In this document: positions 19,503 through 49,552 of the stretch, one piece after another | Numbering within the stretch: position 1 is the stretch's first letter | How the letters are laid out: each line of letters opens with the position of its first letter | Virus record (IMG/VR): IMGVR_UViG_3300031993_000008 | Span: 32,001 to 96,000 of that record | Origin: a virus | Taxonomy: Duplodnaviria; Caudoviricetes | DNA length: 64,000 nucleotides | Direction: 5' to 3' (one strand) | The notes under the pieces: model-generated | Told to the model about the DNA's origin: nothing | What the model saw: the letters and a program-made list of their open reading frames with translations, nothing else | Database searches by the model: none | Translations under genes and position numbers: made by a program

Positions 19503-19521
19503 AATATATGTTCAGTTTATT

Positions 19522-21807: not shown

Positions 21808-21832
21808 AAAATTGTGGATAAATAATATATTG

Positions 21833-21873
21833 TATTTATGAAATAAAAAAGGAAGTGGGTGTCCACTTCCTTT
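21833..21873 (-). promoter_or_regulatory. Terminator hairpin plus late promoter CATAAATA (21833-21840)
   Basis: aaaggaagtgg-gtgt-ccacttccttt followed on the minus strand by CATAAATA. Confidence 0.65.
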
Positions 21874-21893
21874 CATTCATATGCCTATTTTTA

Positions 21894-24701: not shown

Positions 24702-24713
24702 AATCTATATAGT

Positions 24714-31380: not shown

Positions 31381-34300
31381 ATGATTTTAACTTTTAGAGA
31401 CTACCAATCTTGTAGTGTTGATTTCAACACATTGGGACAGATAAATGAGTCACATCAGTATTCTGATGCAATCAGTTCTGTCATGGATAAGTTCACTTTC
31501 TACATAAAGAGAAATGTCGCTCTTCAGAACAGTACCCTCAATGAGGCAGCAAAGAGAGCATACAGTAAGGATATCAAGTTCAACAGAGATGAAAGAGTCG
31601 CTGCCATCTGCATATTCAATGAAATGCTCAAACAGTATGAAGAGAATATGAAAGAGGAACTTGCTGTATGTGAAGCAATCATCAATAATGAGTCAGTCCT
31701 TGAAGAAGGTGTTGAATATGATGAGGAAACTCTTTCAAACATCCTTTCACTTAATGAGGAAATCAAGATATTCAAGAAATTGAAGAATGTCACAAAGACT
31801 GTCCTTGATGGTGCAAAAGACCTTTCTGTAAAAGGTATTGAGGTTGTAAAAGCAAAGAAGGAAGACCTTATTACCTGGGCCAAGGAAGCAAAGAAAGAAT
31901 TTGAGGAAAAATACAATGCCCTCAAAGAACTCATCAGTGATATTGTAGAGAAAGGTATTGACAGTATTGAGAAATTCATAAACAAGATTCTTGAAGTATT
32001 CACATCAATAGGTGAAAACCTTGTTGATGCAGTAAAGAAACTTGGTGGTCTCAAGATGGATAAAGATGAGAAAGCCGCAACAATTGACATTGAAGATTCT
32101 GAAGGTATCTATGCAGGTGCAAAAACTGAAGAAGAAAAATCATTTATCAATAACATCATATTGAGAGTTCAGGCAATCCTTTCAAAGGATGAGGACAATG
32201 CTGCAAAACTGATGACAGAATCATATGTTGCAGAATCTATAGTTGACAACAAGTTCATTGCCTGGTTGGCTGGTTACAAACCAGATGGTACCAAGATGAG
32301 TTGGTGGAAGTGTATACTTATTGGTCTCTGCGCATCACTTATTGTATGGATGCTTCCAAAGGTTCTGGTTCTTGCAGGTCTTGGTGGTGCTCTTACAGCA
32401 TTTATTGCAGCTCTTGTGGGTCTGACCTGGAACGGTATAGGTATGTTGAGACTTGTATATAGAAGAAACAAGGAAAGAAAACCTGGTGAAAAGTTCTTTG
32501 ATAGGAAGACCAGTATCTTCTTCGGACTTTCGCTTATTGCAAACATATTCAGTGCAGCCACATTTGTCAAGACTATTGGTCCTCTTATGAGAGAGATTTG
32601 TAACACAATGGGATGGACCGGTGGTGATGATATGAGTAAATTTGGTGAAGCAGTATATGAGATCACAAAGAAGATAAGTCCAAAGAATGCATTTTCAGAA
32701 GGTGGATTCAATGAGGTATCAGAAGAGATCCAGAATCTTGGTGGTGATTTCAGAGGAGATGACCTCTTTAAGTCAAAGGATGATGTTCTCAATGCAGTAA
32801 AAGAAATGCCTGGTTCAACCGATGCACAGGTAGATGCACTTGACAAGTTCCTTTCAGCACCTCTTGATGCAAAGGGTTCATCTGCTGTTTATGATGCGCT
32901 TGAATCATTCAAGGATAATGCAGACCTTCCTTTCACTGCTGTATTTGATACTTCAAAGTGGGGAGGTACTGGTCCTATCAGACAGGCCATTGAAGTATTG
33001 AAGGATCAACTTCCTGAATCAGCAGTCCTTGGTACTATAGGATCTGCTGCAACCCAGGAAGCATCAAAGGGTATGTATGGTTTTGCCAATTTCCTCACAG
33101 GTGTAAACCAGGAACAGGCAAATATGATTTTCCAGAAGGCTGCTGAAATTGCCGGTAAGGATATGGACTTACTCCAGTTACACACATATGGTACAGGTGA
33201 GATTGCAAATGTCATCACAACAGTTGAACCTATCAAGGGACTGTTTGATGTACTTACACCGGATGTTCCATTCCTTCCTATGGTTATGCCATTCTTTGAT
33301 GACAAGAAATGGGGTGAATATAAGATAAGGTTTGCATCAGCAACAAGAGGTGCAGCAGCTTATGTGGTTGACAGGGTTGAAATGTTACCTGCTGACAAGA
33401 TTGAAGGTTCAAGTAAAGCATTTGACACCTTGAAGACTCTCCATAACAATGCATGGGAAGAGTTCAAATCACTTGACATTGAAGACATCAAGGTAAATGA
33501 GGCAAAGGAAAAGGAAGAGAAGAAGGAAATCGAGGAACCACAGTTCATAGCATTCTATATAAAGGTAGAGGAAAAGACTGGAAAGGATGGAGATGAACCA
33601 AAGGAAGGTGAAGAGGAAAAGAAAGAAACAACCGGAGTGGGTGTTGTAATTGATACTCTTACTATGATGTGTGCTGATGTCTGCGATTTCAACGAATCAG
33701 TGGAAATCAGAAGAAGACCACAACCTTACTTTATGAAAGGTCTCCTTTCAAGACTTTCATTCAGACCATTGAAAGATAATGACAATGAAACAAAGGACTA
33801 TATCAGGACAACTCTTGGTCAGACAATGAAGACTCTTGCTTCACAGAATGTTCTTTATGGTATGGGTAAGAAATACATTGACTCAACAGTTGATGGTAAA
33901 AAAGCAAACTTCACAATAAGAAAGGAGATTTTGGGTAGTGACAAGAAAATATCTCCAAATAAGACCACATTTGAACTTGGTAACTTCTCACCTGAAGAAC
34001 TCATCAAGATTCTTACAGATGAAAGCAAGAACAACAAGGTTGCCTATGAATTCCTTGGTGGTGAATATGCATCAAAGGTTTCCGTCAAGACAAATGAGGA
34101 TGGTTCAATCAAGTCAAAATCAGTAATGAAGGATGAATCAACCATTGAGAATGTAAGATATTACAGAGTTTCAAAAGACACATATAATGAATCTATTGAA
34201 AAGTGGAAGAAAGAAGTTAAGAAGTGGGAAAAGGATGGTAAAGAAGGAAAGAAACCTACCAAACCTACATTCATCAAGGGTGATGACAAGGAATATTACA

Positions 34301-34905
34301 AGAGGGCATCCAAGAAATTTATGAGTGATCCTGCAAACAAGAGAAAGAGAACATATGATTTTGTTGACATCAGAATCATACCTCTCCTCAAGAAAGGTGA
34401 ACTTTACAAGAAACTCATTGATAATGAGAAGTTCAAGAATATGCTCTACAAGGAAGATGAAGTGAATAATGTAAAACTCAACAAGGAAGTCATCAAGGTT
34501 CTCAAACCATTCCTTTTCAGACCAGAAAAGACATTTGCCAAGGATGATGAATACCAACTTTCACAACTTCTGAAAGACCAGGGTGTAGAAGGTGAGAAAC
34601 TCGGATGGTTCAAGAATCTCTTCAAGGATGAGGAACAGCTTCATGACACATTCAAAGACCTTGTGGAAACAATCTGGGATTACCTGTCAGACAACAGAAG
34701 AAAGGTGTTCAAAGATAAAGACCTCATACCTAATCATGGTAAGAAAGTTGAGGAGGATACTGAATACACACTGTTTGATGAATTGATTGAGGAGTTCTTC
34801 AATGATGAATATGATGAGGAAACAGAATATGAATATGATGTTGACATCATCAGTGAACAGAAAGATGTTCTTTCATTTGAAGATTTCCTGATTGAGAAAT
34901 ATTAA
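31381..34905 (+). CDS. Large putative internal/ejection virion protein with central transmembrane segments
   Basis: 1174 aa, several xNE/xxE sites, hydrophobic block at about 32302-32570, F-x-x-[FY] motifs at both termini. Confidence 0.55.
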   Translation: MILTFRDYQSCSVDFNTLGQINESHQYSDAISSVMDKFTFYIKRNVALQNSTLNEAAKRAYSKDIKFNRDERVAAICIFNEMLKQYEENMKEELAVCEAIINNESVLEEGVEYDEETLSNILSLNEEIKIFKKLKNVTKTVLDGAKDLSVKGIEVVKAKKEDLITWAKEAKKEFEEKYNALKELISDIVEKGIDSIEKFINKILEVFTSIGENLVDAVKKLGGLKMDKDEKAATIDIEDSEGIYAGAKTEEEKSFINNIILRVQAILSKDEDNAAKLMTESYVAESIVDNKFIAWLAGYKPDGTKMSWWKCILIGLCASLIVWMLPKVLVLAGLGGALTAFIAALVGLTWNGIGMLRLVYRRNKERKPGEKFFDRKTSIFFGLSLIANIFSAATFVKTIGPLMREICNTMGWTGGDDMSKFGEAVYEITKKISPKNAFSEGGFNEVSEEIQNLGGDFRGDDLFKSKDDVLNAVKEMPGSTDAQVDALDKFLSAPLDAKGSSAVYDALESFKDNADLPFTAVFDTSKWGGTGPIRQAIEVLKDQLPESAVLGTIGSAATQEASKGMYGFANFLTGVNQEQANMIFQKAAEIAGKDMDLLQLHTYGTGEIANVITTVEPIKGLFDVLTPDVPFLPMVMPFFDDKKWGEYKIRFASATRGAAAYVVDRVEMLPADKIEGSSKAFDTLKTLHNNAWEEFKSLDIEDIKVNEAKEKEEKKEIEEPQFIAFYIKVEEKTGKDGDEPKEGEEEKKETTGVGVVIDTLTMMCADVCDFNESVEIRRRPQPYFMKGLLSRLSFRPLKDNDNETKDYIRTTLGQTMKTLASQNVLYGMGKKYIDSTVDGKKANFTIRKEILGSDKKISPNKTTFELGNFSPEELIKILTDESKNNKVAYEFLGGEYASKVSVKTNEDGSIKSKSVMKDESTIENVRYYRVSKDTYNESIEKWKKEVKKWEKDGKEGKKPTKPTFIKGDDKEYYKRASKKFMSDPANKRKRTYDFVDIRIIPLLKKGELYKKLIDNEKFKNMLYKEDEVNNVKLNKEVIKVLKPFLFRPEKTFAKDDEYQLSQLLKDQGVEGEKLGWFKNLFKDEEQLHDTFKDLVETIWDYLSDNRRKVFKDKDLIPNHGKKVEEDTEYTLFDELIEEFFNDEYDEETEYEYDVDIISEQKDVLSFEDFLIEKY

Positions 34906-36783: not shown

Positions 36784-37338
36784 TTACTCACCCTCCTTCT
36801 TTGCTTTTTTCTTTTTCTTCTTTTTAATCTCTTTCTTGTCTGTAAGTTTGAACTCCTTACTCGGGTCAACCACAACCTTGGCCCTGGACATAAAGTCCTT
36901 ACAGAGTAGCATCCTACTCCTGTAGGTCTTAGTTCCTGACAAATCAGAAATCTTCAGGTCAACCAGTTCATCCTTGTATTCCTTTCCATTGAACTTGATG
37001 TCAACCTTTATGACCGGTCTTTCAGTTGCCTTTCCATGATGCCAAATTTTGATATGTTTCACAATATCATACTCTTTCTTCTCATCATTGAAATCAAATG
37101 AAACCTTACCATCCTTCTCTTCAAAGTCCTGGACTATGATAGCATTGTAAGCAGTGTTACCGGTATCAAGTTTTGCCTTCATCTTTCCAAGACCGATAAC
37201 CTCAATTACCTCCTTGAATCCGGAAACCTCCTTGCCATCATGTGTTTCCTTTGATGTAGGATGAACAGGAGTTTCAGGTATAAAGGATTCCACCTTCACA
37301 CCTCTACTCTTTATATATTCATCAAATTTCTTTAACAT
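36784..37338 (-). CDS. RimK-associated retropepsin-like protease (RimB / 'ATP-dependent Zn protease' family)
   Basis: KAKLDTGN, ERPVI, MLLCKDFM..VVVDP; downstream of rimK; poly-Lys tail. Confidence 0.75.
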   Translation of the reverse strand: MLKKFDEYIKSRGVKVESFIPETPVHPTSKETHDGKEVSGFKEVIEVIGLGKMKAKLDTGNTAYNAIIVQDFEEKDGKVSFDFNDEKKEYDIVKHIKIWHHGKATERPVIKVDIKFNGKEYKDELVDLKISDLSGTKTYRSRMLLCKDFMSRAKVVVDPSKEFKLTDKKEIKKKKKKKAKKEGE

Positions 37339-37351
37339 AATATTATTGAAT

Positions 37352-37507
37352 TTATTTAAATCCTAATTGGTCTTTATTGGATGTGATTTTACCATTACCA
37401 CTTTCCTGCCAAAGTTTTTTCACCTCAGCAACCTTCTGCTTGAATTCTCTTCTCAACTTCTGTTTCAAAGAAAGCGGTGTTGAATCATTATGACAATTAC
37501 ATCCCAT
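37352..37507 (-). CDS. Small protein MGCNCH... (51 aa, missing from ORF track)
   Basis: ATG immediately after the rimK stop; open to TAA at 37352. Confidence 0.6.
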   Translation of the reverse strand: MGCNCHNDSTPLSLKQKLRREFKQKVAEVKKLWQESGNGKITSNKDQLGFK

Positions 37508-39277
37508 TTAATCTACCTTATTATATGGTGCCAGGTCAACCTCATGACCATAGAAGGCTTCTATCACACCAGCAACCTTACATGCATTCTCAAATGAGAT
37601 TGTATCATTGTTGAAGTAAGCATAATTCTCTTTACACTCAATGAGTTCATTTCCCTTGTAACTCAATGTCCAGTTATCCTTACTTTCATTTACACTCTCA
37701 ATCTTCCAGTTGTCATTCTCATATACTGACTGTTTACCCTGGATGAATCTTGTGATGAGTTTCCTCAATCCACCAAGTCTGATGTTCTCACCTTCTTCTA
37801 TTATCTTACTTTCATTTAACATAACACTTTCATCAAGTTTCTCAACAGGTACATCAAATCCTGTGGTGTTGTCTGTGAGGATGAATGAGTTCTCTACTAC
37901 AACAGCCTTGTCTGAAATTCTGTGAAGCAGCTTACTACCACCTATTGCAATATTGATATTGATATTGTCATTTACAGTCTTCAAGACAACAAGTTCATTC
38001 TTGTATATGGTACCATTGAACCTGATGTTCATCTCAACCATAGGATCTCCCTTTCTCATACCTGAAAGTTCCATCTTGTAAGTGACACCATTGAATACGA
38101 ATGTCACGTCATCGTCCTTCGCATTTACTGAACTACACTGGAGTTCTGTGAATGTCTTGTTGTCATCAAACTTCATAGCAGCATCAACACCATCACCCAA
38201 ATCCTTGAAAGTGACAGTTTCATACTTACCAATCTGATCTGAATCATACTTGGTGTACTTGAAGTCCTTGAACATATCCATCAATGTACCTACAACATCA
38301 TCACCGGCAGCAGTTGTAATACCCTTGGTACCAGGAGATGAGTTCACCTCAATCACATATGACTGCTTTGTCCTGGAATCCATAATAAGGTCAACACCGG
38401 CCCAACGACAACCTGTTGCCTTGGCTGCCATCTTTGCAATCTTCTCCTGTTCTGATGTAAGATGACCCTTCTCTGCTGTTGAACCCAGTGAGTAGTTACT
38501 TCTGAAATCGCCGGCAAGCTGGTTTCTCTGCATACATCCGATAATCTCAAAATTGTCAATACCTGGGGTCATCCTTTCAAATCCCCTATAGAGTACATGG
38601 ATACGGAGGTCATAATCTGAATTGATTTTCTCCTGGAGAAGAATATCTGCCTTTGGTACAAGTGCAAATATTGCCTGAAGGACAGATTTAAGTGAAATCA
38701 TTGAATCTATCTGGGCAACACCAATACCCTGTGTTCCCTTTGTAATCTTGATGATAAGAGGAAAACCACCACCTACAGCAGCAACCTTATCTTCAAGTTT
38801 GTTCATTGAAGAGTTGGTAACAACAGCGGTCTTTGGTGTAGGAACACCGGCAGCTTTAAGTTTCTTGTATGTGATGAACTTATCCTCACAGTTGTCAATT
38901 GCATCAAGAGTATTCAATACAAAGAATCCGTCATTCTGGAGTTCAGTAAGGAAATCCCTTGACTCGATATTCTTCAAAACTGTTCTTCTTGGAACAATGA
39001 TGGTGTTGTTTGGATTGAGGGTGAAAGTCTTTTTTGTTTCACCATTCTCAACTACATTGTAATCATCATCACTACCCTTTGAGATTGTAGATGAAGAAGG
39101 ATCAATTGTGACCAATTTCAATCCTGCCTTTTTGGCTGCCTCCTCAAAGAAAAACATTGAATTGGAACTCTTTGTGGTCTTTTCTGCCCTACTTGACAAG
39201 AAAACAACCTGGATGTTCTTTGCTTTCTTACTTTCATTAAGAGGAGCATATCCTTTACTTGAATATTTCATAGTCAT
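37508..39277 (-). CDS. rimK: RimK-family ATP-grasp glutamate ligase with degenerate protease-like and extra C-terminal domains
   Basis: DKFITY..L..AGVPTPKT, FPLIIK..GTQGIGV, LLQEKI, DLRIHV, FRSNYSLG, AGVDLI, EVNSSPG. Confidence 0.85.
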   Translation of the reverse strand: MTMKYSSKGYAPLNESKKAKNIQVVFLSSRAEKTTKSSNSMFFFEEAAKKAGLKLVTIDPSSSTISKGSDDDYNVVENGETKKTFTLNPNNTIIVPRRTVLKNIESRDFLTELQNDGFFVLNTLDAIDNCEDKFITYKKLKAAGVPTPKTAVVTNSSMNKLEDKVAAVGGGFPLIIKITKGTQGIGVAQIDSMISLKSVLQAIFALVPKADILLQEKINSDYDLRIHVLYRGFERMTPGIDNFEIIGCMQRNQLAGDFRSNYSLGSTAEKGHLTSEQEKIAKMAAKATGCRWAGVDLIMDSRTKQSYVIEVNSSPGTKGITTAAGDDVVGTLMDMFKDFKYTKYDSDQIGKYETVTFKDLGDGVDAAMKFDDNKTFTELQCSSVNAKDDDVTFVFNGVTYKMELSGMRKGDPMVEMNIRFNGTIYKNELVVLKTVNDNININIAIGGSKLLHRISDKAVVVENSFILTDNTTGFDVPVEKLDESVMLNESKIIEEGENIRLGGLRKLITRFIQGKQSVYENDNWKIESVNESKDNWTLSYKGNELIECKENYAYFNNDTISFENACKVAGVIEAFYGHEVDLAPYNKVD

Positions 39278-39300
39278 AAATGTATATAATTTCAATATAG

Positions 39301-39340
39301 TATTTATGAAAAAGAGTGAGAATCAATCTCACTCCCTTTA
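39301..39340 (-). promoter_or_regulatory. Terminator hairpin plus late promoter CATAAATA (39301-39308)
   Basis: gagtgaga-atcaa-tctcactc followed on the minus strand by CATAAATA. Confidence 0.65.
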
Positions 39341-41269
39341 TCTTCTATCCATCTGGTTGTATGTCCTGTCAACATACTCTCTGAAATCATCCACATAGTC
39401 ATAAACCTTTGCATTTGGTGAATGTACACAAGGTTCATCTTCCTTCCTGAATTTCTTTGATTTCTTCTTTTTCTTCTTTATCTGTTTAAGGAACATTGTA
39501 TATGGTGCAACCTGGTGGTAAACTATTCCTGTTGGTGATGGAAGGTCTCCTGATCCAGGCTCACCATTTGGACCTGGAAAATAAGCAGCACCCATTCCAC
39601 CCACACTGGCAGGTGTGGCACCACCCGGAACACCCTCACATTCATTTGTGATATTTTTTTGTCTTTCTGCCTCTTCCATTTCAACATATCCTGAAAGTCT
39701 GTCTGACAATTCATCAGCCCAATAGTTCCTGACATAATTCAATATACCTTCAATGTTGGCATCCTGTGACACAACACCCTCTCTGTCATTACTTTCAATA
39801 TAATCACAAAGACCATCAAGTGAAAACTCATAATCATCATATACTATCCTAGTAGCATAAAAAACAAGGAACTGTTCAAGATTATCCATATCTTCAAATG
39901 ATAACTCATCCTCCTTCTTTATTTTCTCACCACTACCCCTGTCCAATATACCTTTCCAGACTGATTCATTTGTAGGATGCCATGCAACATATTCTGTCAT
40001 CTTTTCCTCCCATGTGAGGTCACCCCACATATCACTTGGATTGACATAGTTGTCTTCACATCCTCTGGAGTATAATACATCCATTCTATCACTTTCATCC
40101 AATGAATCTGCCCACCAAGTATCAAGTGTATCATCTATGGTCTTACCTGGTTGCTTCTCAAAACCTATTTTCTTTATTTTCTCATTTTCTGAATTAATCT
40201 CCTCATCTATGACTTTTTTAACTTTTCCCCAACATCTCTTGGCAAAATCAACCTTCCTCACTACATATTCCTTTGCTTTATTGTCAATGATGTTCCATCT
40301 TTCCTTGCAGAACCTTTCAAAGTCATAGAGGATGTTTTTGTACTGTTCATAATACACTATCCTTTCCACAAATGACCTGATGTCATATTTAATGTCATCA
40401 ACAGTAAGGTCATCCTCCTTTCTTACACTGTCTCCTGAACCCCTGTCAAGCATACCACCCCAGGTTGATTCATTCACATATTGACTGTTCAGGGAATCGA
40501 CAACATCATCAATTTGCTTATTTAAATTATCAATCGCATCTTCTATGGCAGGAAGTACAGTATCATCCCAGTGTTCTTTGGTGTAGTCCAGGAGATCATC
40601 CATATTGTAATCAATTGATGACACCCTTGGTTTATCCTTATAATCTTTTATAAAGGCTTTGAATTCAGAATAACTACCCACAGTATAATCATGTGTGTAT
40701 TCTATTGCTGCAAATATTTCTATATATGCAGAAAGGGCGTTCAGAAGATTTTCTGATATTTTGTCTTCTTTCCTTTTGTCATCTCCTCTACCTCTGTCAA
40801 GTATTCCACCCCAGGCGGATTCATTGACAAGCATATTATCTTTATTATTCAAAAAGAATTCAATTACATCTATGTATGTCTTATTGGTACAAGTACCATC
40901 TTCTTCTTTTATAACTCTTCTACATGTACCTATATTTTCTACATTAAACTTTTCTGATAAAGCCCACAAAAATGAGTGTCTTATTTTTACACCTACACCA
41001 GACCAAGACAACACAATATGATCCATTTCACCATCCTCATTATAAATGGTCTTTAATGATATATTACCTATTATATCAACACAAATTTCCCATGAATTGA
41101 ATTTACCTGTATACTTATCTAAATAAAATATCCTTTTCTCATATTTGGACTTGATATAATCATAAAGACCATCAACATCAAGGAGATTGATATCATCCTC
41201 CTTTCTGATAGTCTCTCCTGTACCCCTATCAAGGACATCACCCCAGACTGATTCACTGATTTTCTTCAT
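39338..41269 (-). CDS. Tag-delimited polyprotein (4 WGGILDRG tags) with capsid N-arm-like C-terminal module
   Basis: Four ES.W..[IMV]LDRG.G...KED motifs; VGGMGAAYFPG identical to capsid; basic tail. Confidence 0.75.
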   Translation of the reverse strand: MKKISESVWGDVLDRGTGETIRKEDDINLLDVDGLYDYIKSKYEKRIFYLDKYTGKFNSWEICVDIIGNISLKTIYNEDGEMDHIVLSWSGVGVKIRHSFLWALSEKFNVENIGTCRRVIKEEDGTCTNKTYIDVIEFFLNNKDNMLVNESAWGGILDRGRGDDKRKEDKISENLLNALSAYIEIFAAIEYTHDYTVGSYSEFKAFIKDYKDKPRVSSIDYNMDDLLDYTKEHWDDTVLPAIEDAIDNLNKQIDDVVDSLNSQYVNESTWGGMLDRGSGDSVRKEDDLTVDDIKYDIRSFVERIVYYEQYKNILYDFERFCKERWNIIDNKAKEYVVRKVDFAKRCWGKVKKVIDEEINSENEKIKKIGFEKQPGKTIDDTLDTWWADSLDESDRMDVLYSRGCEDNYVNPSDMWGDLTWEEKMTEYVAWHPTNESVWKGILDRGSGEKIKKEDELSFEDMDNLEQFLVFYATRIVYDDYEFSLDGLCDYIESNDREGVVSQDANIEGILNYVRNYWADELSDRLSGYVEMEEAERQKNITNECEGVPGGATPASVGGMGAAYFPGPNGEPGSGDLPSPTGIVYHQVAPYTMFLKQIKKKKKKSKKFRKEDEPCVHSPNAKVYDYVDDFREYVDRTYNQMDRR

Positions 41270-41274
41270 AATAA

Positions 41275-41312
41275 TATTTATGAAAAAAGGTGAGAATCAC
41301 TTCTCACCTTTC
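41275..41312 (-). promoter_or_regulatory. Terminator hairpin plus late promoter CATAAATA (41275-41282)
   Basis: aaaggtgagaa-tcac-ttctcaccttt followed on the minus strand by CATAAATA. Confidence 0.6.
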
Positions 41313-42163
41313 AGTATCTTATCCAGTACATTGTCTGGAATCTTGTCTATATAAATCCTCTCATATGTTCCGTCATCCTTCAACCATATCAGTACCCTGT
41401 CAATAATCTTGATTCCTATTGATTCAAGGAGTCTCTGATATATATTGAACTGGAGTATGTAATGTGAAAGAGGTTCATCAACATACTTTGACACACACCC
41501 CTTCATCATAATCCCATTCTGTCTGTTATAATCCTTAATGAGAGACTTGTTGGTCTTCCAGTCCATAATGACATATGCATCATTGTCACTGTCATAAAAC
41601 AGAAGGTCACATGTACCGCAAATTCTCCTCACATCTTTTATATATTCTGTTGACAGTTTGAACTCCGCACCTACAGGATGATAGTTGGATTCCAGTTCAT
41701 CATAGAATTTCTTTATTGCTTCCTCCTTTGGATAAGTTGGAACCATTGTGTTGAATTCCTCAATATACTGTGACTTGTTTTCCTCACATATAAGTTCAGG
41801 ATGACCACACAGGACATTGGTATATGATTCACCGAAACAGTGTGTCCTGGTACCGGAGATTGTGGATTTCAGGTTGTTGAGTTTCCATTCCTTCTGTACT
41901 TCAGACTTCACCTTTTTCCACTTAAGCGCATAATCAGTTGCCTTCTGATCCCAATCAACTTCCGGTTCATATTCCTTGATTATATTACTTACAGGTGTAT
42001 ATTCCTCTTCCCCTATGAAGTACCTGTGACTATCCTCAAAGAACTCTATATCACCAAACTTGTCAAGTATGAGATCTCTGCATGCACTTACAACAGAATC
42101 AATCTTATTCTTATCCTGCACCTTCTTTTCAAAGGTGTTATTGAAAATATCATCAAAATCCAT
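41297..42163 (-). CDS. PD-(D/E)XK exonuclease-like protein
   Basis: HRY, GTRTH, GAEF, CGTCDLL, IMDWKTN, YILQFNIY. Confidence 0.8.
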   Translation of the reverse strand: MDFDDIFNNTFEKKVQDKNKIDSVVSACRDLILDKFGDIEFFEDSHRYFIGEEEYTPVSNIIKEYEPEVDWDQKATDYALKWKKVKSEVQKEWKLNNLKSTISGTRTHCFGESYTNVLCGHPELICEENKSQYIEEFNTMVPTYPKEEAIKKFYDELESNYHPVGAEFKLSTEYIKDVRRICGTCDLLFYDSDNDAYVIMDWKTNKSLIKDYNRQNGIMMKGCVSKYVDEPLSHYILQFNIYQRLLESIGIKIIDRVLIWLKDDGTYERIYIDKIPDNVLDKILKGEK

Positions 42164-42166
42164 AAT

Positions 42167-42436
42167 CTACAATTTACCTATTATCATATCTGGAGTAATG
42201 ACAACATACTCCACATCCTCAACCTTAATATATATTCCTCCCATATCAGCAAAGGCAATATGGTCTCCCTTCTTCCACTCATTCTCAAGACCCACACTGT
42301 CAATCACTCCGGTATATGGTTCAGGTATCTCATACATATTCTGGGGTTGTCTGTCTGGAAGAATCAGGGGTGAATTGTTCACACTCTTATCCTTCACCAA
42401 TATTATAGTATCATTTATTGCCTGAAACTTCATCAT
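42167..42436 (-). CDS. groES: GroES/Cpn10-like co-chaperonin
   Basis: AINDTIIL, LILPD, TGVIDSVG, KKGDHI, IIGKL pattern. Confidence 0.75.
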   Translation of the reverse strand: MMKFQAINDTIILVKDKSVNNSPLILPDRQPQNMYEIPEPYTGVIDSVGLENEWKKGDHIAFADMGGIYIKVEDVEYVVITPDMIIGKL

Positions 42437-43494
42437 AACCTATCCCTATATTCCGTCATCTTATCCTGAACACCCTTCATCATCTCTTCAGTCAGATCCT
42501 GCTTAAGAAGAAAATCCTCCACATATTCATCACTGCTCTTTGCATCATTGAAGTTGAACTCACCTGTTGTTTCCAATTCCTGCATCACATTATCACCAAC
42601 AGGAACAAAACTTCTGTATGATGATTTCAATTGTGAACAGAAGTCATCAAAATTACACTTGGTGATGTCACTGCTCTTCACATGGAGTTCAATCCTGTTA
42701 TTCTTCCACCTTTCCATCAGTTCACCCACTGTTGTATAGATGAGATCATAAATGTTCTCTTTCATATATTTAGGTGAAACAGTGTTCTCAATGAAACTGG
42801 TTTTTCCGGTCTTGATTTCCAGGACTGTTATACCTTTTATATTATCCCTATCACCTCTGTCCTTATGATAAGGATTACCTACATAATGGATATTCTTATT
42901 GTCCTGTCTGATGTGAATGTGTCCGGCATATACCTGGGATTTCTTGAAGTCTCCACCCTGGACACCACCAGAAACATTGATTTTCACACCTGACCTGTTG
43001 GCAACCTGTGAACCATTTATTTCAAGATGACCGAAGATGTAATCAACATTGACACCAGAAAGAACCTGTTTCTCCTTTTCAGGATCCTCAATCCAAGGAT
43101 TGAAAAGACAGGACTTTCCGTCAATGACATCAACAATCGGTGTGTAATACACTTTCACACCAGGTATATGTTTCAGCATATTGATTGATGTGATGTCATT
43201 GGTTGACTTCTTCAGAATATCATGGTTACCAACAGTTATCCTGATGTCCTTAAAGATTTCAGAGAACTGCTCAAAAAGTTTGATAACTCTGTGTATGGTG
43301 TTCAGACCAATGGTTGAACGATTGTCAAAGACATCTCCAAGATGAATGAGTATATCTCCCTCCTTCACTTCCTTCCTCATCAATGGTATGACAACATCTT
43401 CAAAGTAACTGATATAATCTTCAAGCCACTCCTCATCATCACCTTTATAACCAAAGTGAGTGTCTGCTAAAAGCCAAATCTTTCTATTTTCCAT
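42433..43494 (-). CDS. Mre11/SbcD-like nuclease (T4 gp47-like)
   Basis: ADTHFG, LGDVFD, VGNHD, FGHLE, AGHIH. Confidence 0.88.
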   Translation of the reverse strand: MENRKIWLLADTHFGYKGDDEEWLEDYISYFEDVVIPLMRKEVKEGDILIHLGDVFDNRSTIGLNTIHRVIKLFEQFSEIFKDIRITVGNHDILKKSTNDITSINMLKHIPGVKVYYTPIVDVIDGKSCLFNPWIEDPEKEKQVLSGVNVDYIFGHLEINGSQVANRSGVKINVSGGVQGGDFKKSQVYAGHIHIRQDNKNIHYVGNPYHKDRGDRDNIKGITVLEIKTGKTSFIENTVSPKYMKENIYDLIYTTVGELMERWKNNRIELHVKSSDITKCNFDDFCSQLKSSYRSFVPVGDNVMQELETTGEFNFNDAKSSDEYVEDFLLKQDLTEEMMKGVQDKMTEYRDRL

Positions 43495-43498
43495 ACAT

Positions 43499-43510
43499 TA
43501 AATATAACAA
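43499..43510 (-). promoter_or_regulatory. Putative middle promoter TTGTTATATTTA
   Basis: Exact 12-mer just 5' of ATG 43494. Confidence 0.6.
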
Positions 43511-43557
43511 TAAAGGAGGTATTTGTAACCCCCTTCATTTAATGGTCTGAAAATGAA

Positions 43558-44367
43558 TTAGATAAGACCCCACTCTGCCAGGGCTTCAAATCCACCGATA
43601 GAGTCAATATATGCCTTTGCTTCCTCTACAATCTTACTGTAAGGGATACCATTCACCTCTGTATCACCAATGGCACAGAAGAATGTCTGTGTTCTACCAG
43701 TTCTTTGGGCTTCCAGGAAAGCATAGATGTTAACAGACACATCTGCCTTTGATATATCCTTTCCATTGATACCACCACCAGTAACACCACGACCCATATC
43801 TGAACCAAGCTTGCGGTTGACAGCACCAGTATCAACATTTGTTCCACCAGTCCAGTCACCCAGAGGATTGACAGTTATGGTATATTCCGGATAGTTATAC
43901 TGGAGTTCTGCCTTGAGTTCTTCTGAATTTGCACAACTCTGACATACAATCAAAGTCTTTGTCTTGTCATCAATGACATACTTTCCATCTGTGGGATACT
44001 TCTCATATATCTTCTGTACAATATCCCTCAACTCCATCTCTTCCGGAAGTATAGGTTCACCCTTGAAGATACCATTGTCGCCACAACGGATCTCACCATC
44101 CTGGTTGTGTGCCAGGTGTTCATCCTGGGGAACATTGATGAGTTTGAGTTTTACATCATCACCTGCTATCCTCTTGACAACCGGTAACACATTCTCATCA
44201 TTGAAATTGAAACTTGACTCTGCAATAATGGTACAAAGTCCATGACCAAGGAGTACCTCTATTGCAACCTTGGGATTTTGTTGATTAGCATATGCAAGGT
44301 CAACCAATGCACCAGCAATGCGATCTGCCACCTTATCAGGATGGCTGGGGTTTACTTTCTCAAACAT
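43558..44367 (-). CDS. metK: S-adenosylmethionine synthetase, compact form
   Basis: EKVNPSHPDKVADRI, CGDNG, DGK, NPLGDWTGG..VDTGAVNRK, GGGINGKDISKAD. Confidence 0.88.
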   Translation of the reverse strand: MFEKVNPSHPDKVADRIAGALVDLAYANQQNPKVAIEVLLGHGLCTIIAESSFNFNDENVLPVVKRIAGDDVKLKLINVPQDEHLAHNQDGEIRCGDNGIFKGEPILPEEMELRDIVQKIYEKYPTDGKYVIDDKTKTLIVCQSCANSEELKAELQYNYPEYTITVNPLGDWTGGTNVDTGAVNRKLGSDMGRGVTGGGINGKDISKADVSVNIYAFLEAQRTGRTQTFFCAIGDTEVNGIPYSKIVEEAKAYIDSIGGFEALAEWGLI

Positions 44368-44403
44368 ACTATATACTTAAAAATTAATATTTTTTCAACA
44401 CTT

Positions 44404-44427
44404 TAAATATAACAAACCTCATAAATA
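44404..44427. promoter_or_regulatory. Divergent promoters: middle motif (-, 44404-44415) for metK and late CATAAATA (+, 44420-44427) for the tag array
   Basis: Both motifs are exact. Confidence 0.65.
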
Positions 44428-44450
44428 TTATATCACATTTCTAAAATAAA

Positions 44451-45221
44451 ATGAAGAAATTAAGTAAAATAGATGAATCAGTCTGGGGTGGTATCCTTGA
44501 CAGAGGAACAGGTGAAATCAATAGAAAGGAGTATGGTAAAAAAGTCCATACCTGTATAGATATTGACATTTACATTAAAGATTCATCCTGTCAGTATGAC
44601 AAATACATAAAACACATCCTGGATTATGATAACTATAAATTACCTTGCAGAATTTGTATAGGTTTTGAACGAATCAGTAATCCAACATATACTCCTGAGG
44701 ATTTGGCAAAAATGAAAAACTTTGAAATGCCATATGATTATGTACTTGATGAATACACCAAACCTAAAAATGAATTTGACTATCTTGTTGCATGGTTTTG
44801 GAAATATAATGAATTTATGGACCACAATACCAATGCTGACATCACTGAAGATGATTATATGTCAATATGTAGAGGTATAGCAATCAAACTAAAAGAGATA
44901 GGTAATCGTATTGAACATATGCCTGGAAACAAAACCAATATTATTGGTCAGGATGGTGTATCCAGTAAGTATTCCAATTTTGCCTTGAAATTGATGGATG
45001 AAAAAAATACTTTCCACTGGAAACATGCACATAATGGCAAATCCTTACTTGATTACAAAGAAGATATGATTCATGAATTTCCGGAATTGAAAGATGTTGA
45101 TTTCTTAATGTGGCCATTCAATCAATTCCCTTATGTAAACATTGGTCTTCCAATCACATCAGTAACTGTCAAAGACTTCAAAAAATATGAAGAATATACT
45201 CATAATTGGTTTACAGTATAA
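44451..45221 (+). CDS. WGGILDRG-tag family protein 1
   Basis: MKKLSKIDESVWGGILDRGTGE leader; full-length paralog of next gene. Confidence 0.8.
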   Translation: MKKLSKIDESVWGGILDRGTGEINRKEYGKKVHTCIDIDIYIKDSSCQYDKYIKHILDYDNYKLPCRICIGFERISNPTYTPEDLAKMKNFEMPYDYVLDEYTKPKNEFDYLVAWFWKYNEFMDHNTNADITEDDYMSICRGIAIKLKEIGNRIEHMPGNKTNIIGQDGVSSKYSNFALKLMDEKNTFHWKHAHNGKSLLDYKEDMIHEFPELKDVDFLMWPFNQFPYVNIGLPITSVTVKDFKKYEEYTHNWFTV

Positions 45222-46003
45222 TGAAGAAATTAAGTAAAATAGATGAATCTACCTGGGGTAATATGTTGGATAGAGGTACTGGTGGTGTAATCAAAAAAGA
45301 AGATGGTAAACTTGTACACACATGTCTTGATGTAGATATAGCCATCAAAGACCAGAAATGTGATTATAATACACTCATTAAAGAAATATTGAATGATGAT
45401 TTTATTAGTGGATTTTACCAAGGGGTGGTAATACTAAATACACAACAGAAATCATATTCACCAGAAGAGATGGCAAACATAAGAAAATTTGAAGCACCAT
45501 ATGCATATCTCATTTATGATGGTAAACATGGTACAAGTCTTGTTGCTGAATTCTGGGCATATTCTGAATTCCAGGATTCTGACCTTACTACTGATTTTAT
45601 TGAAAGTGTATCGGAAGAGGATTACATATCCATCTGTAAAGGTATTGCCACAAAACTGAAAGAAGTCGGAGGAGACATTGCACAACTTCCAAGAAGACAT
45701 TCCACAATTTCTAACACAAAAGACCGTGATTTCAATGATGAATATGTGTTTAAACTCATTGATGAATCAGATATTGCATGGTGGGGAGACTATCCTGATC
45801 CAGAAGGAAGGACTCTTACTGATTTTGAAACGGATATGTTCACAGAGTATCCGGAATTAGCAGATGTTGATTTCTTCACTTGGACATTTTATAGCGGATG
45901 TAATATAGGTATCCCTATCAATTATGACACACTTGTTAATTTCAAGAAATATAAAGAATTTACTAAAAACTGGTTTAAAGTAACAGATGAAGAAACTGAG
46001 TAA
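45221..46003 (+). CDS. WGGILDRG-tag family protein 2
   Basis: MKKLSKIDESTWGNMLDRGTG; TAATG coupling to previous gene. Confidence 0.8.
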   Translation: MKKLSKIDESTWGNMLDRGTGGVIKKEDGKLVHTCLDVDIAIKDQKCDYNTLIKEILNDDFISGFYQGVVILNTQQKSYSPEEMANIRKFEAPYAYLIYDGKHGTSLVAEFWAYSEFQDSDLTTDFIESVSEEDYISICKGIATKLKEVGGDIAQLPRRHSTISNTKDRDFNDEYVFKLIDESDIAWWGDYPDPEGRTLTDFETDMFTEYPELADVDFFTWTFYSGCNIGIPINYDTLVNFKKYKEFTKNWFKVTDEETE

Positions 46004-46982
46004 AATAGATGAATCAACCTGGGGTGATATACTTGACAGAGGTTCAGGAGATACTGTGAGAAAAGAGGATGATGTGAATCATTTTGAGTTCTATGATTTT
46101 GTTCATTATCTTGAAGAGAAATATCCTTCCAAAAACAGAGGTACTGGAATTGTATCTGGGCAATCAATTAAAAACAAAAATATTCTCTATTTATCTATAC
46201 CAATTAAAAGATTTGATAATAAAACTCAATGGTTAAGAATTGAGGTTGATAAAGAAACATTAAAGTATACAGGAAACATAGAGGTTAGCAAATCCTTACA
46301 TACCGAATATGAATATACTTTGTTTTCTAAAAAGATATTGGGTAAAAAGTATAAGATTCTGTATAATTTTAGATTTGAAGACTATATATTGAGACCTATT
46401 GATGGTGAGATAACAAACAGTAGCATTGTGGAATTGATTGACATGTTTTTGCATAATGTTGATAACCCATTATTGAATATAGATGTCAATGAATCCACCT
46501 GGGGTGGTATCCTTGACAGGGGTGCTGGTGATGCCATAAGAAAGGAAGACTTACCGGAACAAAATAAGGAACACTGGTGGAGAAACATTGAATTACCAAA
46601 TGTTCCAAAGTATAAAAAAGATGAGCTCAAGGCATTGGATCTGATGTATGATTTTGCTGTGGATAAGATTAGAAAAAGATTCAATGTTTCCTGGCCATAC
46701 CAGATAGTGTTTCACTTTGATGGTGAACCATATTGGGATTTAAATATTGAACACATAACCCCACGAGGTTATGATACTTTTGCTATGTATGCTCATGGAC
46801 CCAGAGCGCCCTGGCAGATTTATTTTTCAGATATGTCAATGGGTGAAAAGAGAAGTATAAGATACAGACTTGAAAAGAAGAAGTTCTATGTATATCCATA
46901 TAAATATGGAGATGGAAGAGTAGAGTATCATTTAAGGGAACAAAGTACCTATAATAATGAAAAAGGAATTGAATTGAAATGA
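45987..46982 (+). CDS. WGGILDRG-tag family protein 3 (two-module polyprotein)
   Basis: N-terminal tag plus internal VNESTWGGILDRGAGD at about 46485-46550. Confidence 0.8.
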   Translation: MKKLSKIDESTWGDILDRGSGDTVRKEDDVNHFEFYDFVHYLEEKYPSKNRGTGIVSGQSIKNKNILYLSIPIKRFDNKTQWLRIEVDKETLKYTGNIEVSKSLHTEYEYTLFSKKILGKKYKILYNFRFEDYILRPIDGEITNSSIVELIDMFLHNVDNPLLNIDVNESTWGGILDRGAGDAIRKEDLPEQNKEHWWRNIELPNVPKYKKDELKALDLMYDFAVDKIRKRFNVSWPYQIVFHFDGEPYWDLNIEHITPRGYDTFAMYAHGPRAPWQIYFSDMSMGEKRSIRYRLEKKKFYVYPYKYGDGRVEYHLREQSTYNNEKGIELK

Positions 46983-47611
46983 TAAAAATAGGCTTGGATT
47001 TCTCACTTGTATCCCCGGCAATATGTGTTTACAAGAATGGAGAGTATTCTTTCATCTCCTTCTTTGATGATTATGGAAAGGACTGGAAAGGAGGAAAGAT
47101 AAAGGCATTCAACTACCATAGGGATCTGTCAAAGTTTATGGAGATGAATCCCTACACAAGACATATTGAAAAGAAGGATTACAGGGAGGAACAGAGGACA
47201 AAGATGAGGGCTGCGAAGATGATCGCAAATAAGATCTCCAACAGACTTGTTGAGATTGTTGGTGGTGAGGAGGTCATCATAGGTCTTGAAGGATTCTCAT
47301 ATGGCAGTATTTCATCATCCACCCTGGACCTGGCACTCTTCAACTCATTTCTCAGGATAAAACTCCTTGAGGATTTCGGTGAGGATTGTCTTGTAATCAT
47401 CTCCCCTACAGAAGGTAAGAAAAACCTTTCAGGTAAGGGAAATGCAAAGAAGGAGGATATGATCCAGGCCTTCATTGAGAACAGGACAAATGACCCGGAT
47501 ATTGAGAGATGTCCATTCTGGAAGTTCTGTAAGGAGAATGAACTTGATTATAAGAACATAAAACCTATTGATGACCTTGTGGATTCATATGGTATATTGA
47601 TAAGTATATGA
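46979..47611 (+). CDS. RuvC-like Holliday junction resolvase
   Basis: IGLDFSL, IGLEGFSY, SPTEGKK..SGKGNAKKEDM, DDLVDSY. Confidence 0.78.
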   Translation: MIKIGLDFSLVSPAICVYKNGEYSFISFFDDYGKDWKGGKIKAFNYHRDLSKFMEMNPYTRHIEKKDYREEQRTKMRAAKMIANKISNRLVEIVGGEEVIIGLEGFSYGSISSSTLDLALFNSFLRIKLLEDFGEDCLVIISPTEGKKNLSGKGNAKKEDMIQAFIENRTNDPDIERCPFWKFCKENELDYKNIKPIDDLVDSYGILISI

Positions 47612-48183
47612 AAAAGTTAAGTAAAATAGATGAGTCAACCTGGGGCAATCTCCTGGACAAAGGTGCCGGAGAAAAAGAAGCAAAGGAAGATACATTCAAT
47701 TTCAACTTCTATCAAATAAAACCGGTTGATTTGGGTCCAGAATTTCCATTCCTTTGGGCAGATACTGACCTGATTGCCAATGATGAAATATACTTTGATT
47801 GGGACACATTACAGAGAATGCTTCCCCAAATTAAGAAAACAGGATGGAGACTTCCCTATTCACCAAACCAAATGAGAGATGTTATTAAACTCATAAACAC
47901 ATCACCTAATCTGAAAACAGTATGGCACCGCAGGGCATTTGGAATGATAGAGAATACAGACACTGGTGAATATGTATCATTTCCTACAGGTAGTCAATTT
48001 GGAGAAACCTATTGGTGTGAAGATGATTATCATTCAACCAATCCAGGAAGACAAATTGAAAATGAAAGGGTATTTGAAATAGGTGAAAACTATTATCAAG
48101 ATGGTAAAAAGATGGTTTTACTTTCAACTAATAATATGGAAAAAACAAGAACAGCAAGAATAAGACTCGTAAAGGACAAATGA
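47608..48183 (+). CDS. WGGILDRG-tag family protein 4 with DUF1566/Fib_succ_major-like domain
   Basis: Tag then VDLG..LWADTDL..YFDW..GWRLP..YW..IRLVKD. Confidence 0.7.
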   Translation: MKKLSKIDESTWGNLLDKGAGEKEAKEDTFNFNFYQIKPVDLGPEFPFLWADTDLIANDEIYFDWDTLQRMLPQIKKTGWRLPYSPNQMRDVIKLINTSPNLKTVWHRRAFGMIENTDTGEYVSFPTGSQFGETYWCEDDYHSTNPGRQIENERVFEIGENYYQDGKKMVLLSTNNMEKTRTARIRLVKDK

Positions 48184-49010
48184 AGAAGTTAAGTAAGTTA
48201 TTGAATGAATCTACCTGGGGTGGTATGTTAGACAGAGGTAGGGAAGATTCTGTAAGTAAACAGGATTTTGGTGCTGAACTGGAAATTGATGGTACAAAAT
48301 ATATATTTGCCAAAGATTTCTGGAATATGGGTGATATATATGAAAAGGAAAATGAAAGTGAATGGACATGTTTTGCCTTCAATAAAATGCCAAATGGAAG
48401 TAAAATCATAACCGGTGACACTGATGCTGCCGGAGTTTTCGGTAGAGACAAATGGGATATTGGTGAAAATGAATATGAGGTATATGTATTGAGGAATTAC
48501 TTTGATAAAACAAAACAGCAATTGGTAGAGAGTTCAATAAATTGGGGTGACATTGATGAAATAGGAATTCCTGAAATCAAAAATATTCTTGTAAAGTATA
48601 TAGAAGAAGTATACACAAAACATATGTCTGATTTTGCATATCACTGGATTCAGGAATTAGAATCAAAAGATTGGTCTCAGGATTTAATAATATGTTGCAA
48701 TATCTACAATGAAGATGATATTCAAAATGGTGAAGATTCTAATATAGATACCATTCAAGATGAATTTAATCACAATGTCATTGAAAAAATACATATCATT
48801 TCATTTTCATCATTGGAACACACAGATTGGGATGAAAGACTTGAAAAGGCATTGACAGATGAATATACAAAGATAGGATATGTCAAGTCAGAGGAATTTG
48901 ACCTGGATCCATTTAATGACCCAGGAAATACAATATGTCTTACATTTGTCCTTTTAGGTGAAGAAAAAGAGGATGATGAAGAAGATGATGAAAACCATAG
49001 AGATTATTGA
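48180..49010 (+). CDS. WGGILDRG-tag family protein 5 (acidic)
   Basis: MKKLSKLLNESTWGGMLDRG. Confidence 0.75.
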   Translation: MKKLSKLLNESTWGGMLDRGREDSVSKQDFGAELEIDGTKYIFAKDFWNMGDIYEKENESEWTCFAFNKMPNGSKIITGDTDAAGVFGRDKWDIGENEYEVYVLRNYFDKTKQQLVESSINWGDIDEIGIPEIKNILVKYIEEVYTKHMSDFAYHWIQELESKDWSQDLIICCNIYNEDDIQNGEDSNIDTIQDEFNHNVIEKIHIISFSSLEHTDWDERLEKALTDEYTKIGYVKSEEFDLDPFNDPGNTICLTFVLLGEEKEDDEEDDENHRDY

Positions 49011-49012
49011 TT

Positions 49013-49552
49013 ATGAAGAAATTAAGTAAAATAGATGAGTCAGTCTGGGGTGGTATCCTTGATAGGGGAACCGGTGAAAAGGTAAAGAAAGAGGATAACT
49101 TGGGCAATATCTTATCACTCAAACCTATTGATATGGGTGGTTCTGTCCTCTGGGCAGACCAGAACCTGATATATGATGGAGAAGAGATATTCACATATGA
49201 TGAGGCAAATGACCTCATATCCCATTCAGAATGGAGACTTCCAACATTAAAGGAGGTTGCTGAACTATATGGACATAACTTATACTATGATTCAAAATAT
49301 ATATACCTTGATGATCCCAAAAAAATATCATTCAAGAAATGTGGTTGTGGATATCCTAAAGATATTATAATTGATAATGGTAAATGTTTTTATGGATGGA
49401 CATCTGAACCATATGTAAAAAATCCAAGAAATATCAATGTATTTGTCATAGACCATTATACAGTAGATTATACAGGAATTGAACCAGCAAGTATCCCTGT
49501 TACCCAAGATAGAGACACCAGATGTTGTATAAGACTGGTCAGAGACAAATAA
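49013..49552 (+). CDS. WGGILDRG-tag family protein 6 with DUF1566/Fib_succ_major-like domain
   Basis: Tag then IDMG..LWADQNL..WRLPTLKE..GWTS..IRLVRD. Confidence 0.7.
   Translation: MKKLSKIDESVWGGILDRGTGEKVKKEDNLGNILSLKPIDMGGSVLWADQNLIYDGEEIFTYDEANDLISHSEWRLPTLKEVAELYGHNLYYDSKYIYLDDPKKISFKKCGCGYPKDIIIDNGKCFYGWTSEPYVKNPRNINVFVIDHYTVDYTGIEPASIPVTQDRDTRCCIRLVRDK

Follow-up and report, generated by a model that had tools for sequence, protein, structure and literature searches.

A short peptide tag with genome-specific spelling on diverse cargo domains of an uncultured T4-like phage

Two tagged loci and their phage

The stretch of DNA that was analysed (the window) comprises 64,000 nucleotides (nt), positions 32,001-96,000 of the IMG/VR record IMGVR_UViG_3300031993_000008 (Caudoviricetes), and holds two loci in which a short conserved peptide, here called the tag, stands in front of variable protein domains. 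The original prediction, made from the letters of the window, had placed seven copies of the tag at the N-terminus of genes and four inside them, the internal ones after V-N-E or T-N-E, and a six-frame search has recovered precisely these 11 copies. Their Trp codons have been located at 44484, 45254, 46020, 46500, 47641, 48216 and 49046 on the plus strand and at 41245, 40813 and 40462 on the minus strand, the fourth copy of the minus-strand polyprotein being a W-K-G variant with its Glu at 39967. Both loci do lie behind the late motif CATAAATA, which is found 13 nt upstream of 41269 and 31 nt upstream of 44451. The K-(E/Q)-D ending of the tag, also proposed originally, needs one correction, as the tag of the gene at 44451 ends in K-E-Y. 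The features of the two loci are the following (an arrow marks a predicted cut):

41275-41282, minus strand: T4-type late promoter motif CATAAATA before the polyprotein gene
39338-41269, minus strand: polyprotein of 643 amino acids (aa) with a 6-residue leader, tag plus domain A, three modules of tag plus helical domain B, and an untagged C-terminal module
41195-41251, minus strand: tag copy 1, after I-S-E
40763-40819, minus strand: tag copy 2, internal, after V-N-E
40412-40468, minus strand: tag copy 3, internal, after V-N-E
39908-39964, minus strand: tag copy 4, internal, after T-N-E, the W-K-G variant
39338-39640, minus strand: C-terminal module of the polyprotein after T-N-E↓C, with a copy of the capsid N-arm, poly-Lys and a second R-K-E-D
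44420-44427, plus strand: late promoter motif CATAAATA before the array
44451-45221, plus strand: leader, tag (44478-44534) and a family F domain without database match
45221-46003, plus strand: leader, tag (45248-45304) and a family F domain, paralogue of 44451
45987-46982, plus strand: leader, tag (46014-46070) and domain A, then V-N-E, tag (46494-46550) and an unmatched domain
46979-47611, plus strand: RuvC-like resolvase, untagged, interrupting the array
47608-48183, plus strand: leader, tag (47635-47691) and a C-type-lectin-like (Lcl_C-like) domain
48180-49010, plus strand: leader, tag (48210-48266) and an acidic family E domain (-16 per 100 aa)
49013-49552, plus strand: leader, tag (49040-49096) and a C-type-lectin-like (Lcl_C-like) domain

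In the last module of the polyprotein, 11 residues (39572-39604) repeat the N-arm of the mature capsid protein, which ties the polyprotein to the head, and this module exists as a stand-alone late gene in a sister clade of about 76% capsid identity. Over the whole contig, a tag profile has found 13 sites at 28-55 bits, with the next best at 3.7 bits; as 12 of the 13 copies had built the profile, the evidence against chance lies in this gap to the background and in independent database matches. The two copies beyond the window (genome positions 1915-2496 and 117816-119117) each directly follow a canonical T4-like targeting sequence. The minus-strand gene at genome 117816-119117 (L002:5817-7118) encodes a two-module protein with an internal targeting-type sequence, the tag and a very acidic domain (-21 per 100 aa) that matches no Pfam or PDB entry; the end of this domain recalls ArdA, a match that scores 0.75 and serves only as a lead, and in the sister clade each of the two modules has a gene to itself.

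The contig has 155,538 bases and encodes T4-type capsid, head protease, portal and sheath genes. Since relatives with 92-94% capsid identity have genomes of 345 and 412 kilobases (kb), it amounts to about half a genome, roughly one half of a T4-like, Bacteroidota-type jumbo phage of ~350-400 kb from the cattle gut. The Bacteroidota type is suggested by the cargo types and by the capsid protein, which is 27-45% identical to the capsids of Lak, Tenacibaculum and other, mostly Bacteroidota, phages; GTDB genomes, searched with one spelling pattern only, have given no tag. A second record (G001, 154 kb) carries a complementary gene set and the identical tag spelling, and its cluster of tagged genes without a leader shows zero differences in a bovine gut run that holds 99% of the tagged array's words. 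The two records have been pooled for these reasons and are likely one molecule.

The tag, its cargo and its two N-terminal contexts

A profile built from the 11 copies has been searched against 1.84 billion representative proteins and has found 226 proteins at E <= 0.001. The best 150 of these contain 373 tag copies, with Glu before the first Ser in 99%. The consensus reads hydrophobic-x-Glu↓Ser-[Val/Ile]-Trp-[Ser/Gly]-Asp-[Ile/Met]-x-x-Arg-[Ser/Gly]-x-Gly-x-x-x-[Arg/Lys]-Lys-Glu-Asp, about 19 residues for the tag itself, and the WGGILDRG of the window has turned out to be a minority spelling. Tagged modules have a median length of 154 residues, polyproteins carry as many as seven copies, and near-complete genomes hold 27-42 copies each; whole-record searches of three relatives have given 42, 27 and 14 matches. 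The tag had originally been assigned to no named family and profile searches agree, as no Pfam, PHROG, NCBIfam or PDB family covers it; a PDB sequence search has reached a best E of 0.74, and there has been no match among 50,697 GenBank phage records or in viral contigs scanned with one DNA pattern. No earlier description of a retained, lineage-specific tag has been found in the literature searched, a coverage that leaves out most subscription papers, and the frame of loading and processing is that of the known T4 system.

Grouping of the cargo by BLAST places about 220 of 376 modules in family A, which is alpha/beta, 78 in the helical family B, 35 in family C, which is lectin-like, and 14 in family D with its DUF285 leucine-rich repeats, besides several small acidic families. 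Modular, swappable cargo had been expected and is borne out, the estimate of at least four unrelated domains in the window being corrected to six families. The tag is independent of the cargo fold: it heads at least eight unrelated families, among them lectin-like, leucine-rich, WYL_2 and helical domains, and AlphaFold models of domains A and B (mean pLDDT, the predicted local distance difference test score, of 86 and 89) leave it unfolded on both folds (pLDDT < 50). The motif might have been a strand or helix at the N-terminal end of some folded domain, or else the repeat unit of one protein family, as about 220 modules do share one fold family and the last residues of the tag enter its first helix; against the spread over unrelated families and the disorder in both models this explanation is already largely refuted, and we give it hardly any credence. 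The tag is accordingly not a part of one known folded domain.

The best structural match of domain A is MotA with its C-terminal double-wing fold (Z 8.1, borderline on the scale of the tool, root-mean-square deviation 2.8, 97 residues), followed by matches at Z 7.6 and 7.3, and Foldseek has given E 0.16. The basic character of a DNA-binding domain was looked for by net charge over the whole sequence, which for domain A is -3.4 per 100 aa and equals the genome mean. Viral and Atlas fold searches with domain A have returned weak rows only and a feature search no usable match; for domain B the fold search has found nothing above Z 5.8, and the Ocr-like fold that domain B might resemble is absent from its matches. 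In family C, 29 of 35 members match PF07603 weakly (best E 5e-6), a window member scoring 22.9 against a curated cut-off of 34.9. PF03382 (DUF285) matches the tagged polyprotein P0004 of family D, which occurs in relatives only and not in the window. The cargo is neutral to acidic, database searches have matched no catalytic family in the cargo of copies that follow Glu, and the anti-defence function that had been proposed for it is conjectural.

Copies that follow Glu are referred to as class I. Every N-terminal class I tag is preceded by a leader of 6-13 residues ending in Glu, and many of these leaders are of the canonical K-T-F/Y-x-E-F/Y-I type. Across the contig's proteins I/L/V-N-E-S/A occurs 21 times versus 5.6 in shuffles, and two head genes of the window carry such sites themselves:

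3948-5690, minus strand: gp23-type major capsid protein (PHROG 138), whose L-N-E↓S (residues 50-53) serves as model of the cleavage site
6380-8389, minus strand: gp21-type head maturation protease (PHROG 207), the putative processing enzyme, with its own V-N-E↓S site

Cleavage after Glu by a gp21-type protease would thus be expected to yield one common new N-terminus, as had been predicted; the near-constant Glu, the L/V-N-E↓S shared by capsid protein and head protease, and the leaderless genes, in which Ser comes right after Met, all support this. The further proposal, that the tag is a capsid-loading signal, is not supported in that form. In T4 the targeting propeptide consists of the first ten residues and is taken off by gp21 (PMC9026906, PMC9958956), so that a loading signal lies before the cut and is removed (PMC9026906); the leader fits this description and the tag, lying after the Glu, does not. 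Because of this T4 precedent the leader would be the loading signal, with the tag staying on the mature protein, and many tag copies already have a canonical T4-like leader in front. The tag itself is probably not a removable T4-type signal, since a cut after Glu and a start at Met should both free the same N-terminal Ser. A 9-residue leader has Leu4 and Ile7, hydrophobic at the T4 targeting positions 4 and 7, whereas 6-residue leaders do not match.

The leaderless copies (class II) make up 23 of 95 tags in four records and follow the start Met, while 72 follow Glu, one of them with an extra Ser. For 21 of the 23 there is no other in-frame start upstream, the upstream stop being 1-14 codons away. 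Every open reading frame (ORF) of the four records that starts Met-small-[Ile/Val/Thr]-Trp is tagged, and none of the 469 ORFs of a sister-clade genome starts in this way. Removal of Met before Ser is well established, so that the leaderless proteins would expose the same N-terminus as the protease-cut ones. Class I operons have a late motif 12-90 nt upstream of their first gene, and 20 of the 23 leaderless genes lie 3.5-26 kb away from any late motif; one leaderless cluster adjoins RNA-ligase, ATP-grasp and nucleotidyltransferase genes. Several leaderless proteins have 55-90 aa with unconserved tails, and their cargo includes a WYL_2 domain, a capsid-protein fragment and one hydrophobic segment of membrane type. 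A 65-aa leaderless tagged protein (L076:9257-9454, plus strand) has a tail that matches Gp23 positions 10-39 (E 0.005), the region of the T4 gol peptide, and is a possible decoy.

One spelling per genome and the search for a partner

The signal had been called universal, which does not hold, as the spelling of the tag is specific to each genome. On orthologous, syntenic cargo the spelling differs among phages and is uniform within each phage: nine tag residues place 101 of 101 copies in the correct genome, with the cargo's best match lying in another genome for 70 of 79, and tag identity is 0.74 to tags of the own genome versus 0.34 to the tag of the cargo orthologue. A phage with 97% capsid identity already has a different spelling. 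Residue 7 is, in three genomes, Leu in 26 of 26 copies (by five codons), Arg in 27 of 27 and His in 42 of 42, with several codons for each. One spelling per genome despite shared cargo and varying synonymous sites implies a co-evolving partner, and the pattern would be explained by a partner that differs between lineages or by intramolecular epistasis against a fixed partner.

Gene conversion offers an account without any partner, in which a generic linker or start cassette has been homogenised and the spelling records the last conversion sweep. In the variable columns synonymous identity is indeed 0.57-0.73 within genomes versus 0.47 expected, and at background level between most genomes; moreover, in ten leaderless genes Met-Ser lies in an ATGA overlap that couples translation. 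Gene conversion therefore probably helps to spread the spelling, but homogenisation of this degree is too incomplete for residues that are fixed, so that selection is needed besides. Leu is kept by five different codons, the first Ser across both the TCN and AGY codon families, and Trp is invariant in all 373 copies, although partly by construction, as the copies were anchored on Trp. As a full explanation conversion appears highly improbable.

Candidate partners have been compared across spellings. The capsid protein is disfavoured, its variation among four spellings being mainly in one insertion region, and RimK is likewise disfavoured. In five genomes the polyprotein locus has, no more than ~6 kb away, a RimK-type ATP-grasp ligase with its own L-N-E↓S site. 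One of the leaderless clusters has an R2K ATP-grasp gene nearby, and a small N-terminal residue is strictly needed in the tag. These observations would suit a substrate signal, that is, an N-terminal degron or a site of covalent change (acylation, peptide ligation) by which a phage enzyme times or activates tagged proteins. As the RimK domain keeps 89-96% identity between genomes with four very different spellings, and R2K has been found in G001 and G003 but not in G002 (in a search with its last 53 residues only), we judge such a role improbable. In the window the region 36784-39308 (minus strand) encodes the RimK-type ligase, with its own late motif and L-N-E↓S sites, followed by a RimK-associated protease, which carries a T4-like leader; at locus L062 a tag is placed after a poly-Lys stretch that resembles the end of this protease.

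The MoxR-vWA-peptidase set is more variable in its vWA domain (61-80% identity) and is a candidate only; sets of this kind have been proposed to aid virion assembly (PMC7824862). Its four genes at window 17736-26696 (minus strand) encode a vWA protein with its vWA domain at 17739-18470, a DUF2201 metallopeptidase, a MoxR AAA+ protein with an inserted DUF285 repeat and a second AAA+ protein, with x-N-E↓S sites in three of the four, and a second pair of peptidase-vWA and MoxR genes lies at genome 130210-134686. The AAA+ protein at window 24714-26696 (minus strand) contains, at residues ~578-590 and in four genomes, a helix starting E-S-I-W like the first half of the tag; it does not track the spellings, and the resemblance may be due to chance. 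Between lineages there is strong divergence in the candidate core and ejection proteins. When the sister-clade genome G010 was subtracted, too many partner candidates were left, and G010 itself has a related motif.

Phages of the sister clade are of two kinds. Some show a distant but recognisable spelling after Glu; in others the same cargo families begin, in late genes and without a leader, with a motif whose Gly, Arg, Glu and Asp match the register of the tag. Only the second half of this motif aligns with the tag (hhalign E 0.0011, probability 20%), and it has not been counted as the same tag for this reason. Its residue 10 is always Glu, as in the T4 signal, and it may be an ordinary targeting sequence joined to a shared linker. 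In a 363-kb phage it is found on 16 late genes, mostly DUF285 repeats (L182:5490-8470 and loci L208-L219).

Where and how the tag may act

Leaders as short as six residues, the exact polyprotein register and the leaderless, non-late copies would together be explained most simply if the tag required a free N-terminus and stayed masked up to head maturation. The tag is pictured as a linear docking motif of ~19 residues, composed of Ser-[Val/Ile/Thr]-Trp, a genome-specific amphipathic stretch, Gly and Arg/Lys-Lys-Glu-Asp, that would function only at a free N-terminus and be bound by one reader, which differs between phage lineages. Class I proteins would be late products that have a short T4-like propeptide in front or are joined into polyproteins, and would be loaded into the prohead, where the gp21-type cut after Glu would unmask the tag before injection. 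Class II proteins, leaderless and encoded mostly in non-late operons, would expose the same Ser by removal of Met. Both classes would thereby present the tag early in the newly infected cell and bring varied binding-type domains to a common hub, most likely in the service of host takeover or counter-defence. This docking tag, active early in the infected cell and masked in packaged copies until cleavage, is the explanation that we prefer, at about even odds.

Several observations weigh against it. T4 internal proteins are encoded by early genes and are nevertheless packaged, so that a non-late position of the leaderless genes does not exclude packaging. Three leaderless WYL_2-type orthologues lie 19-34 nt downstream of a late motif, the related motif of the sister clade, in the same register, occurs only on leaderless late genes, and the comparison of capsid protein, RimK and vWA set has identified no docking partner. 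Finally, leaderless copies have Trp as residue 4 and Ile/Met as residue 7, and these coincide with the two positions by which the T4 signal targets (PMC9026906).

The tag might instead act inside the virion, as a second targeting helix that escapes cleavage, binds a core, scaffold or ejection protein under rapid evolution and serves loading, retention in DNA packaging or ordered ejection; leaderless copies would then be packaged via the tag alone, as T4 internal proteins are via their N-terminal signal. The fit of residues 4 and 7, the location of 72 of 95 copies in late operons, the capsid N-arm copied at the polyprotein end and the strong divergence of candidate core and ejection proteins are consistent with this, and the sister-clade motif, confined to late leaderless genes with the same cargo families, keeps such a role alive. 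However, many class I genes already have a canonical T4-like leader, which would then be redundant, tags repeated up to seven times in polyproteins are always in exact register with the cut, most leaderless genes lie in non-structural operons and encode products that are in several cases very small and in one membrane-like, and the capsid protein is almost invariant across spellings outside its insertion region. We consider a role inside the virion, the main alternative, rather unlikely, but deserving of serious attention.

F-box proteins and the leader peptides of ribosomally synthesised and post-translationally modified peptides (RiPPs) likewise combine a short constant motif and many variable domains with one reader. 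A more far-reaching form of the docking tag would be an F-box-like adaptor system, in which 27-42 proteins with a lineage-specific key dock on a single hub enzyme, either made by the phage or hijacked, host targets are picked by domains of lectin-like, leucine-rich, double-wing and capsid-mimic type, and a capsid-preloaded, protease-masked polyprotein wave is followed by an early unmasked wave. Taken jointly these propositions are unlikely; no scaffold or modifying enzyme has been identified here, unlike in F-box and RiPP leader systems, and the likeness is a resemblance only.

Among known systems, the T4 internal proteins IPI-III and Alt share with the tagged class I proteins an N-terminal propeptide ending in Glu, a gp21-type protease, a gp23-type capsid and diverse mature cargo behind a shared leader, and IPI is a precedent for injection and counter-defence (PMC9026906, PMC9958956). 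They differ in that here a second motif stays on the mature protein, repeats in polyproteins, occurs also without leader and has genome-specific spellings in 27-42 copies, and in that T4 cargo is basic. Polyvalent proteins injected by phages and the heads of jumbo phages (PMC7824862) resemble the present case in variable multi-domain proteins thought to enter with the DNA and in the MoxR-vWA-peptidase set, whereas here the modules are split by protease-type sites, carry a common tag and, in class I, lack a catalytic match. The ejection proteins of SPN3US and phiKZ-like phages are similar in that the prohead protease cuts many head proteins, which then reach the cell (PMC5694885, PMC7411985). 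These phages belong to another lineage, and the literature searched has given no report of an N-terminal tag that is retained, specific to a lineage and present on leaderless genes too.

Phage head cargo with a shared leader is thus known already, but there the leader is cut off, whereas this tag survives the cut and stands on leaderless genes as well. Its re-spelling across 27-42 scattered copies per lineage points to a reader under strong lineage-specific selection. Acting in the cell, it would represent a new way of organising many phage counter-defence proteins around one hub; acting in the virion, it would define retention or ejection by its sequence, a kind of signal that T4-like heads are not known to have. 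Under either reading the tag makes it possible to list candidate effectors of gut phages that are abundant and uncultured, and its natural spellings are built-in specificity controls for a pull-down.

Two further genes have been noted on the contig. The plus-strand gene at window 31381-34905 encodes a 1174-aa protein without family match that combines three N-E↓S/A sites with a hydrophobic stretch (residues 310-350) and is a candidate for an ejected membrane-pore protein. Outside the window, a phage DnaK-like gene (genome 115216-117081) shows 65, 83 and 63% identity to its counterparts in three relatives, a non-clock pattern that suggests exchange.

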